Part shown: in pieces, positions 18,001 through 21,000 of the stretch
How positions within the stretch are numbered: the first letter of the stretch is position 1
Layout of the letters: the number at the start of each line of letters is the position of its first letter
Virus record (IMG/VR): IMGVR_UViG_2877251553_000005
Length of the DNA: 52,483 bases
Reading direction: 5' to 3' (one strand)
Origin: a virus
Lineage: Duplodnaviria; Heunggongvirae; Uroviricota; Caudoviricetes
Position numbers: made by a program

Positions 18001-21000
18001 GTAAGGATTGCCGTGGGCGTGGTGTCGCCATTCATCGTGAAGAGTCGGTAAAACGTGGTATGCCTGTTATCAGAGACTGCCAGCGTTGTGGTGGTCGTGG
18101 CTGTGAAAGACTACCATCAACGGAGGCATTTAATGCCATATGCAAAGTGACGAGTGCTATCACGCTTGATACGTGGAAAAAATCAGTGAAACGCTTTTAC
18201 GATACGTTGGTGGTTCGGTTTGACATTGAAGAGGCATGGGCGGAGCGGCAGTTAAAGAGGGTAACGCGATAGTGTTGTTGATTTTTCCCGAATCTGTGGT
18301 AAATTTGCTCTAACGATGGGCGTTTTATGCCTGACGTTAGAAGATTTTTTACACCCCGCCGCCTGGCGGGTTTTTTATGACTGAAATCGCGTCAGTACAG
18401 TAAACGCGCTGGTGGCGGTGAATACCTGTCTTTCAGCTTGCTGGCTTTTTCGACAAGAGTTATTGGTGTGTCACGTTAACCGGAAAAGGGAAAAAGACAT
18501 GCTGAAACAGCAGGATATGACAGAAACCGCCAGAGTGGTGTTTAATGAATTAAGCGTTAACGACCCGGCGACAGTCGGGGAGATTGCGCAGAATACTTAC
18601 CTTTCACGCGAACGCTGCCAGTTAATACTGACCCAGCTGGTTATGGCGGGTCTGGCAGACTATCAGTTCGGTTGTTACAGACGCCTTCCGCAGTGAAGGC
18701 TTTTTTATTTGTGGTAAATGGGCGGCTGGTGGGTGTTAGGGGCACCCACCAGCCATCTGCTCATGCGTTGGGTTCACAAGCAAACCTCAGGCCCACTGCT
18801 TTGCGCAAAAGCAGAATGAGCCTATCAGAGACAGGCTTAATGATCCATGCTTAATACTGTAAAAATATCCAGTTGTGAGTTAATCAACGCCGACTGCCTG
18901 GAATTTATCTGGTCGTTACCCGAAAATTCTGTTGACCTGATAGTCACGGACCCGCCGTACTTTAAAGTGAAGCCTGAGGGCTGGGATAACCAGTGGAAGG
19001 GCGACGATGATTACCTGAAGTGGCTGGACCAGTGTCTGGCGCAGTTCTGGCGGGTGCTGAAACCTGCCGGAAGTCTTTACCTGTTCTGTGGTCATCGCCT
19101 GGCATCTGATATCGAAATCATGATGCGTGAACGCTTCAGTGTGCTGAACCATATTATCTGGGCGAAGCCGTCCGGACGCTGGAACGGATGCAACAAGGAA
19201 AGCCTGCGGGCGTATTTCCCCGCCACAGAGCGCATTCTGTTCGCGGAACATTATCAGGGGCCGTATCGTCCGAAAGATGCCGGGTATGCGGCGAAGGGCA
19301 GTGCACTGAAACAGCATGTGATGGCCCCGCTGATTTCTTACTTTCGTGATGCGCGCGCGGCCCTGGGGATAACGGCAAAACAGATTGCAGATGCCACAGG
19401 AAAGAAAAACATGGTGTCGCACTGGTTCAGTGCCAGTCAGTGGCAGCTACCGAACGAAAGCGATTATCTGAAATTACAGTCGCTGTTTGCCCGGGTGGCA
19501 GAAGAGAAACATCAGCGCGGTGAACTGGAAAAGCCCCACCACCAGCTGGTGGATACGTATACGTCACTGAACCGGCAGTATGTGGAGCTGCAGAGTGAAT
19601 ATAAGCATCTGCGGCGGTATTTTGGTGTGACGGCGCAGGTGCCGTACACGGATGTGTGGACACATAAACCGGTGCAGTTCTATCCCGGGAAACATCCGTG
19701 CGAAAAACCGGCAGAAATGCTGCAGCAGATAATCAGCGCAAGCAGTCGTCCGGGTGACCTGGTTGCAGATTTTTTTATGGACTCAGGTTCAACGGTAAAA
19801 GCGGCACTGGCGCTCGGGCGTCGTGCGATTGGCGTTGAGCTGGAGACCGGACGTTTTGAGCAGACGGTTCGGGAAGTACAGGATTTAGTCAGCCAGAACG
19901 GATGATATTGCAGAATTAATTACGCGTCGTTATTATGCGGCTCCCGGCCCTTTAGCTCAGTGGTGAGAGCGAGCGACTCATAATCGCCAGGTCGCTGGTT
20001 CAAATCCAGCAAGGGCCACCATCACATACCGCCATTAGCTCATCGGGATAGAGCGCCAGCCTTCGAAGCTGGTTGCGCGGGGTTCGAGTTCTCGATGGCG
20101 GTCCATTTATCGGTATTCTGCGTTGTTAGCTCAGCCGGACAGAGCAATTGCCTTCTAAGCAGCTGTGGTTGCACTCCTGTTGTTTCTGGTGGTGATGGTG
20201 GACTTCAGCAGCCGGATAATGTCGGTGCTGTCTGATGATGTTTTGGTGGCGGGTGTGGTGGTTGTTGCTTTCCCGTTGCTGAAAAAGAAAGCATCAGGCG
20301 ATTAGCAGGGTATCAGTTACCCGTTGAAATTTTTAAATACCTCACAATTCCACAGCTTGATGATTGTCTGGCTGCCGGAGAATTTGTTAAAAATTACATC
20401 GCATGGTGAATCCCCCTCAGCGGCGGGGCATCTGGCAAAGTGTATGATCCAGAGAACATGCAAATTCAGTAGACAGGCTGAATTTACCGGGAGGCACCTG
20501 GCACCATGCGACAGACAGAAATTAGGCTATACTTCAGCCCCTCTCCGGAGGGGCTTTTCTGTGCAGGATGTGTCACAGTTTCCTGAATTCTGAGTACTGT
20601 CCTGTTACTCAGGGTGCTATATTTTCTGACGTGATGAAAGTCTGCCGGAAGGCGGAACGTATCGGAAATGACCCAGTAGAGAAAACGTTGACTCAGATAC
20701 CGATGCTGAGTTACCGGGAAACCGGCATCACATGACCGCTATCCTTCCAGGCTCGCTCCGGCGGGCCTTTTTACTGCAGAAAACAGTTTTCCCGTAAAAT
20801 GCTACGTTGCTCATAATTCAGGCTGGCGATTATTGTCTGGCCAGCGGGAAGTTTGTTAAAAAATTTCGCATGGTGAATCCCCCTGTGCGGAGGGGCAATC
20901 AGCGAGTAGGTATATGGGATAATCGCGGATTCAGGTGCTGGTACTGAATTCACCGGGAGGCACCCGGCACCATGCAATGGCACATAGCGCCACTCTCCAG

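Follow-up and report, generated by a model that had tools for sequence, protein, structure and literature searches.

The stretch analysed here, the window, is IMG/VR virus record IMGVR_UViG_2877251553_000005, 52,483 nucleotides (nt) of a lambdoid prophage (Caudoviricetes), and our subject is the gene for a DNA methyltransferase that lies in its late region, shortly after an antiterminator Q gene. The open reading frame (ORF) runs on the + strand from an ATG at 18847 to a stop codon ending at 19905 and encodes 352 amino acids (aa). A first-pass annotation had read exactly these coordinates as an orphan methyltransferase, and both parts of that reading hold. The Pfam profile PF01555 (N6_N4_Mtase) matches residues 29-340 with E 3.6e-42 and 145 bits (cut-off 26.7), covering profile positions 1-219 of 221. 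No restriction endonuclease lies beside the gene: all ORFs within about 3 kb on each side are assigned otherwise, with DUF968, RusA, Q and a 65-aa ORF upstream, and, downstream, a pair of tRNAs, a small ORF of TciB/DUF3927 type, an oppositely oriented IraM/PmrD-like gene and a SASA esterase (Table 1). Motif IV (DPPY, residues 35-38) comes first in the protein, followed by the domain for target recognition (TRD), then by the position of motif I (FxGxG, residues 310-314), which is the beta-class order. Solved beta-class enzymes match the protein in two blocks arranged in the same way, the closest being M.BceJIV (8URK), M.RsrI, CcrM, M.MboIIA and M1.HpyAVI. The window carries a single copy of the gene.

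Over full length the protein is identical to M.EcoGII at 327 of 349 residues (94%), and the true identity is probably higher, because the M.EcoGII sequence used was a machine-read PDF copy of Supplementary Table S1 of PMC11551740, whose visible reading errors depress the figure. Its identity to the enzyme of phage 1720a-02, named "very similar" to M.EcoGII (PMC5778455), is 95%. Like M.EcoGII and M.EcoGI of Escherichia coli O104:H4 C227-11 (Murray et al. 2018, PMC5778455), it is a beta-class, prophage-borne enzyme without an endonuclease and begins with MLNTVKISSCELINADCLEFI; unlike M.EcoGII, it reads FFMDSGST in place of FFMGSGST (G312D) and carries a second substitution, R22W. The C-terminus of the window protein, ...DLVSQNG, is that of the enzymes of phages P27 and 1720a-02, whereas M.EcoGII ends in ...DLIV after 349 aa. 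Clustered at 90% identity, the protein belongs to a group of 5932 members, the named ones being E. coli or Shigella methyltransferases. Of 5426 complete E. coli genomes, 1979 contain homologues of the family, at up to 6 copies each. There are also 288 phage records with homologues, most of them from phages carrying Shiga toxin 2 genes (Stx2 phages). More distant relatives (61-80% identity) are spread throughout the Enterobacterales, in Salmonella, Klebsiella, Enterobacter, Erwinia, Xenorhabdus, Photorhabdus, Providencia and Morganella. Judged by its sequence, the gene is a real prophage methyltransferase of the M.EcoGI/M.EcoGII family; the gene as such is already known, and its silence in lysogens has been published, as has its location in lambdoid and Stx prophages. 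M.EcoGII and M.EcoGI modify adenine whatever its context, and their substrates are double- and single-stranded DNA, DNA:RNA hybrids and RNA (PMC5778455). The first-pass annotation had treated target specificity as unknown, a statement superseded by the identity of at least 94% to M.EcoGII, a non-specific adenine methyltransferase.

The window protein departs from its family in motif I, which binds S-adenosylmethionine (SAM). It has DFFMDSGST where its relatives have DFFMGSG(S/A)T, and thus does not retain both glycines of the motif. A single transition, G>A at 19781, changes GGC to GAC and replaces the first glycine of FxGxG with aspartate (G312D). Glycine occupies this position in all 85 alignments to independent homologues that cover it (61-99% identity), in the 12 other members of the 90% cluster, in all 77 viral contigs of IMG/VR with a readable motif, and in M.EcoGII and every reconstructed ancestor of PMC11551740. 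In gap-free alignments the aspartate stands at the motif-I glycine of CcrM, M.MboIIA, M1.HpyAVI (G197), M.RsrI and M.BceJIV. The exact mutant 61-mer centred on codon 312 is present in none of the 5426 complete E. coli genomes, where 493 matches to this 61-nt probe carry exactly one mismatch; in E. coli YJ4, the sole relative compared base by base, the mismatch is the central base. The mutant 61-nt stretch has no match among phage records either. In a profile the substitution costs 3.5 bits (score change -3.5), the same as at other invariant glycines, which is consistent with importance of the residue but does not discriminate.

A sequencing error was considered as the source of G312D and ruled out. 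The exact protein is recorded on 64 contigs from several independent assemblies, under the names Shigella dysenteriae or MULTISPECIES Shigella "site-specific DNA-methyltransferase", and this recurrence marks the substitution as real. One of these contigs, CP026825.1, is identical at positions 2869595-2876653 to window positions 15847-22905 over all 7059 bases. Across codons 1-339, the only differences between the Shigella allele and the nearest E. coli / E. albertii allele are R22W and G312D, both non-synonymous; there is no synonymous change. Tryptophan at residue 22 was found only in the Shigella allele. The pattern fits relaxed constraint or selection against activity, the numbers being too small for proof.

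Substitutions of the equivalent glycine have been made in other adenine methyltransferases. Residue G177 of EcoKI is reportedly the first glycine of its motif I (Willcock et al. 1994). The EcoKI change G177D is cited, in a passage of PMC2647291, as affecting cofactor binding. In M1.HpyAVI, which has the same FMGSG motif, G197A was reported to be crucial for SAM binding (PMC5173035), and a passage of the same paper states that mutation of M.EcoKI or M.EcoP15I at the equivalent glycine abolished binding of SAM (AdoMet). In M.BceJIV the phenylalanine beside the motif-I glycine stacks on the cofactor adenine, and the serine and threonine that follow (S244, T246) hold its carboxylate. Since the mutants of M1.HpyAVI, EcoKI and EcoP15I fail in SAM binding, the window copy is probably inactive; as aspartate is a harsher replacement than alanine, we regard loss or severe reduction of activity as quite likely. 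The window protein would then belong to the beta class by descent while probably lacking the activity of its family. As in the M1.HpyAVI G197A, EcoKI HsdM G177D and EcoP15I mutants, the motif-I glycine is replaced, and the EcoKI change is likewise from glycine to aspartate; those three are laboratory mutants of sequence-specific enzymes, whereas the window holds a natural allele of an enzyme from a non-specific family.

The regulatory setting of the gene resembles the late region of lambda. The product of the upstream Q gene is 30% identical to lambda Q (E 1e-36) and belongs to phrog_127, "anti-termination protein Q-like". Shortly after the Q stop codon, window positions 18297-18320 (TGGTAAATTTGCTCTAACGATGGG) align with lambda sequence just downstream of its Q gene (GGGTAAATTTGACTCAACGATGGG). 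The core of the alignment is TAAATTTGCTCTAACGATGGG in the window and TAAATTTGACTCAACGATGGG in lambda, so that the shared core reads TAAATT...AACGATGGG; the stretch is conserved in E. coli YJ4 and in the Stx2a phage Stx2_EH1910. We take the aligned lambda stretch, whose database record carries no such annotation, to be the -10 element (TAAATT) of the late promoter pR' followed by the AACGAT pause-inducing element. In lambda the AACGAT element pauses the sigma70-bound polymerase, letting Q load. A consensus promoter scan raised no flag at the window site, and we infer the pR' role of 18278-18320 by homology. Downstream, a hairpin followed by a T-run aligns with the end of the compared lambda sequence, GGGATTTTTTAT, which in lambda is the 6S/tR' terminator. 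Between this putative tR' and the methyltransferase lie the 65-aa ORF, a second terminator-like hairpin and a leader of about 140 nt. The first-pass annotation had placed the methyltransferase as the first large gene of the Q-dependent transcript, just downstream of a candidate pR'/tR'; its position downstream of Q, pR' and tR' is borne out at the sequence level, but it is not the first ORF, for the 65-aa ORF intervenes.

Phages phiP27 (L24), 1720a-02 and Stx2_EH1910, with enzymes 88-95% identical to that of the window, have the same block between the antiterminator and stx2AB, in the order winged-helix ORF, leader, methyltransferase and tRNAs. In these three phages stx2AB follows the tRNAs and motif I is intact; in the window the third tRNA is truncated and no stx is present. 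In Stx phages, expression of stx2 depends on Q read-through, and co-transcription of the methyltransferase block would therefore naturally be expected.

This arrangement bears on the proposal that the gene encodes a sequence-specific orphan methyltransferase expressed in the lysogen as well, with epigenetic effects on host genes, a role that the first-pass annotation had also raised. It is an orphan methyltransferase on a prophage, and other prophage enzymes, M.EcoGIII for example, do change host expression. The close identity to an enzyme without sequence specificity speaks against this, as do the two terminators and the structured leader that separate the gene from pR'. In homologues the gene is silent in lysogens. 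In the lysogen of strain O104:H4, M.EcoGI and M.EcoGII are not expressed and give no methylation signal, and M.EcoGII harms the cell when it is made constitutively (PMC5778455). Methylomes of Shiga toxin-producing E. coli O111 obtained by single-molecule real-time (SMRT) sequencing contain near-identical homologues without a methylation signal, and M.EcoMV, 99% identical to M.EcoGI, gave no transcript in ST131 by reverse transcription PCR. With its SAM site damaged, the window allele is a still poorer candidate, and we give an epigenetic role in the lysogen hardly any credence.

The 65-aa ORF is a conserved partner of the methyltransferase gene. Of 80 species-level loci, 62 have a homologue of it that ends 100-200 nt 5' of the methyltransferase, while the type of antiterminator varies: only 11 of them share the Q type of the window. 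The protein has 333 detectable relatives, and those named by organism are all from Enterobacterales. An AlphaFold2 model predicts a minimal winged helix with a pLDDT of 90, and its structural neighbours are generic, comprising DNA-binding domains of the IclR, ArsR and MarR type, Z-alpha domains and the RNA-binding winged helices of SelB. Databases label the protein "TrmB family".

Between the second hairpin and the start codon lies a leader that would fold into five helices: P1, P2 (GGCTGGTGGGTG/CACCCACCAGCC, 18725-18755), P3, P4 and a long-range GGTCA/TGATC helix that closes just before the ATG. It is better conserved than the coding sequence, with a mean column identity of 83% over 44 distinct leaders whose corresponding proteins are 61-80% identical. 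In this structure 94.8% of cells are paired; sliding the partners leaves 43% at most, a control that flatters the structure, because it was drawn by hand from these same sequences. Eight pairs change on both sides, compared with 2.2 +/- 1.3 in shuffles (none of 500 reaches eight), the covariation being limited because the leaders are so similar. The clearest compensatory case is P2, which reads GGCTGGTGGGTG/CACCCACCAGCC in the window and GACTGTAAAGGTG/CACCCTTACAGTC in Providencia; many species show U-G wobbles in it. A covariance model of the leader (R1) finds one strong match in each of 50 of 85 sources (769 kb), 49 of them ending exactly at the ATG, and nothing comparable elsewhere in those sources. 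Xenorhabdus and Photorhabdus have a shorter leader in which the first hairpin is kept and the stems are different but complementary. The leader of the window folds with a z-score of -3.67. A GC hairpin precedes the leader in all 13 loci examined, even where other ORFs replace the winged-helix gene; in one of the 13 the leader directly follows Q, pR' and tR'.

Two other readings of the leader were tried and set aside. It is not a small protein gene, since every frame contains a stop in 27 of the 44 leaders, and leader lengths differ by numbers that are not multiples of three. It is not a known RNA either: Rfam 15 gives no match on the + strand at E <= 1 for the window or at E <= 10 for the Salmonella enterica locus L033, and the sole Rfam match is a sub-threshold P26 on the opposite strand. 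The beginning of the leader (18710-18725, TGTGGTAAATGGGCGG) repeats GTGGTAAAT and ATGGGCG of the pR' region (18296-18322) but lacks the TTTGCTCTAACG that lies between them there; at this place other species read TGTG(A/G)AAATGGGCGG. No Shine-Dalgarno sequence is evident before the methyltransferase ATG, which directly follows the GGTCA/TGATC helix, and in most leaders TGATC could alternatively pair with an upstream ATCAG. On the conservation and pairing described, a structured RNA leader dedicated to the methyltransferase gene is very likely real. The simplest guess at its role is that it gates the translation of a toxic late gene or serves in its processing. Its signal might be the winged-helix protein, the methyltransferase itself, RNA being among the substrates of the enzyme, or a metabolite, for example SAM or S-adenosylhomocysteine (SAH).

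Taken together, these observations are, in our view, likely to reflect a late-operon gene of the M.EcoGI/M.EcoGII family whose G312D copy in the window is an intact ORF for a probably dead enzyme. In the family, the late operon would run from Q through pR', tR', the winged-helix ORF where present, the hairpin and the structured leader to the methyltransferase, the tRNAs and stx or other cargo. The terminators would keep the methyltransferase off in the lysogen; after induction, Q-modified RNA polymerase would read through them, and the enzyme would presumably be made only then. Replicating phage DNA would become blanketed with N6-methyladenine and broadly protected against restriction. The authors of the M.EcoGII study suggest that the gene is switched on at prophage induction and that late expression shields progeny DNA (PMC5778455). 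Late self-protection of progeny DNA, as put forward in the first-pass annotation, is thus a reasonable proposal at the level of the family, but it is doubtful for the window copy, because G312D alters the motif that binds SAM and most likely destroys or severely impairs binding of the cofactor.

Several points weigh against this explanation. The loss of activity is deduced from how conserved the position is and from mutants made in enzymes other than M.EcoGII, and the M.EcoGII sequence compared was read by machine from a PDF and contains errors. The ORF, the DPPY motif, the leader and the upstream partner are all intact, so that the gene shows no further decay, and 64 contigs with the allele would also be expected of a tolerated variant. 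In the literature we found Q-dependent transcription of this gene demonstrated for no member of the family, and a weak extended -10-like promoter may lie inside the leader region, in the conserved TGTG-A-rich stretch 18710-18719.

Some of these points would suit an enzyme that tolerates aspartate 312, in which case the allele would be an active non-specific adenine methyltransferase, made late and protecting progeny in the manner of M.EcoGII. Besides the intact reading frame and DPPY, the leader is identical to that of the E. coli / E. albertii relatives, the winged-helix protein is 95% identical to theirs, and the 64 contigs show no further disruption of the protein. The motif-I loop is not uniformly intolerant, as the second motif glycine of M1.HpyAVI tolerated alanine (PMC5173035). 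On the other hand, position 312 is invariant in every homologue examined, the milder change from glycine to alanine at the same position of an FMGSG enzyme was already critical for SAM binding, and EcoKI G177D affected the cofactor. Aspartate would bring bulk and negative charge beside the residues corresponding to those that hold the cofactor carboxylate in M.BceJIV. We therefore consider an active allele unlikely, though it deserves more weight than the other alternatives. A protein unable to bind SAM could also be kept for a non-catalytic role, either in nucleic acid binding or in inactive heterodimers with active paralogues of co-resident prophages, whose toxicity would thereby be blunted. 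Beta-class enzymes are obligate dimers whose subunits divide the labour (PMC7544214), E. coli genomes can hold up to six copies of the gene, and the ORF is open in all contigs on record. The window has just one copy, however; the mutation may be too young for further decay, and the two private non-synonymous changes fit relaxed constraint equally well, which makes such a role very unlikely. We return to a probably dead enzyme as the preferred reading of the allele. G312D may have been selected because leaky expression of a methylase acting on every adenine is harmful. That the leader and the winged-helix protein form a new cis-regulatory device gating the translation or processing of a toxic enzyme, and that G312D is a naturally fixed variant unable to bind SAM, is as a joint proposal only tentative. 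Both the module of leader and winged-helix gene that accompanies the family and the G312D allele appear undescribed.

Table 1. Features of the window around the methyltransferase gene and elsewhere in the prophage
Feature	Position	Strand	Basis or remark
Methyltransferase gene, M.EcoGI/M.EcoGII family, beta-class N6-adenine	18847..19905	+	PF01555 and identity to M.EcoGII
Catalytic motif IV, DPPY, residues 35-38, intact	18949..18960	+	TDPPYF (34-39) in 90 of 90 alignments covering the motif
Motif I, SAM-binding FxGxG, reads F-M-D-S-G (residues 310-314)	19774..19788	+	Codon 312 (19780-19782) is GAC
R22W, second substitution private to the Shigella allele	18910..18912	+	Variable position: K, A, Q, R, P, E, V or S in homologues
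DUF968 gene	16021-17067		
RusA gene	17080-17454		
Q antiterminator, 273 aa, lambda-Q type with inserted CxxCxGxG zinc-finger region	17451..18272	+	PF03589 Antiterm, E 3.9e-51
pR'-like late promoter	18278..18320	+	Candidate -35 TTGATT (18278-18283), extended -10 TGG-TAAATT (18297-18305), AACGAT and GGG (18312-18320)
tR'-like intrinsic terminator, CCCGCCGCCTGGCGGG then TTTTTT	18355..18376	+	Terminator scan: 6 GC pairs, loop of 4, T-run
65-aa winged-helix protein gene	18499..18696	+	Conserved upstream partner of the methyltransferase; phrog_331
Second terminator-like hairpin, GCCTTCCGCAGTGAAGGC and T-run, overlapping the stop codon of the winged-helix ORF	18683..18706	+	Terminator scan
Structured 5' leader, about 140 nt	18709..18846	+	Ends at the methyltransferase start codon
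Leader in other loci: L002, L004, L013, L015-L056, L068, L083, L089, L091, L092	Immediately 5' of the methyltransferase start		
Two tRNA genes: CAT anticodon (Ile, ileZ type, in relatives) and Arg-TCG	19946..20105	+	ARAGORN, Rfam, annotation of relatives
Third tRNA remnant (argO type; ileZ-argN-argO trio), cut after nt 42 of 77	20120..20161	+	42 of 42 nt equal the third tRNA of Stx2_EH1910
TciB/DUF3927-like 46-aa ORF (phrog_1470)	20165-20305	+	Cargo between tRNAs and esterase
STnc100 small RNA (RF02076) matches	20371-20564, 20840-21028, weak 20600-20775	+	140, 133 and 30 bits (last sub-threshold)
IraM/PmrD-like 111-aa protein gene (phrog_4407; PF11183 in related loci)	21054-21389	-	Cargo between tRNAs and esterase
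IS1 fragment, early-left region	4345-5042	-	
IS2-like two-ORF insertion sequence (HTH_Tnp_1 and rve, 136 and 301 aa), nin region	13239-14512	+	
IS2-like insertion sequence, second copy, late operon between esterase and lysis genes	23606-24879	+	

The surroundings of the gene are those of a lambdoid prophage (Table 1), with an integrase (1-1131, - strand), an exonuclease, a repressor/cro-like region at about 6400-7050, replication genes and Q, followed by late genes for lysis, Nu1, terminase A, portal, protease and tail. The tRNAs are the usual cargo between methyltransferase and stx in Stx phages. The cut in the third tRNA, which E. coli YJ4 shares in identical form, is the junction where stx-carrying relatives run on into stx2AB; no stx follows in the window. 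Each of the STnc100 matches ends in a terminator-like hairpin, and they stand at the position of the stx genes in related phages.

The esterase (nanS-p), terminase A, portal and protease C are each split over two frames. The frame breaks, at 22221, 29553, 31524 and 32122, each correspond to a single G lost from a run of four to seven G relative to near-identical references, and nanS-p is intact in other Shigella assemblies with the same methyltransferase allele. The repressor (6399-6805), a holin (24913-25153), a lysozyme (25897-26496) and position 33293 are similarly split in appearance. The frameshifts were first entertained as proof of a defective prophage and then dropped. Because each of the four breaks given above is one G lost from a G run, they are no evidence of a dead prophage; what they point to is homopolymer errors made in the source assembly, not pseudogenes. 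The insertion sequences are more credible as signs of prophage decay, and are the only robust ones.

Other systems share parts of this arrangement. The Hia5/M.HaeV type of Mu-like prophages (Drozdz et al. 2012, PMC3299994) likewise comprises prophage adenine methyltransferases with little or no specificity that are thought to be broadly protective, and they occupy a late-gene position, where they replace mom. They are, however, alpha-class enzymes (I-TRD-IV) of unrelated sequence, and belong to another phage type and regulatory context than the window enzyme. The winged-helix gene recalls the pairing of C protein and methyltransferase in type II restriction-modification systems, where a small protein with a DNA-binding fold is encoded just 5' of a methyltransferase whose timing is sensitive. 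Unlike those systems, the window has no endonuclease, its small protein is a winged helix rather than an Xre-type helix-turn-helix, and a hairpin and the leader stand between the genes.

These results affect how members of the family are named and assayed. The database name "site-specific DNA-methyltransferase" is misleading for the M.EcoGII family, and motif calling in methylomes cannot test its function. The first-pass annotation had looked to the absence of a new methylation motif as the finding that would refute its reading, which does not discriminate, as an active family enzyme yields no motif and is off in lysogens. The M.EcoGII enzyme is sold as a reagent, and the papers describing MadID and SUPREM describe no catalytically dead M.EcoGII mutant for comparison. 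The Shigella allele is a potential ready-made inactive control, and a potential marker of gene decay or of counter-selection of a toxic prophage gene. The leader and its winged-helix partner suggest that a dangerous enzyme is controlled by more than simple Q read-through. If confirmed, the leader would be a new regulatory RNA of phages, and one relevant to Stx phages, because stx2 lies further downstream on the same transcript.

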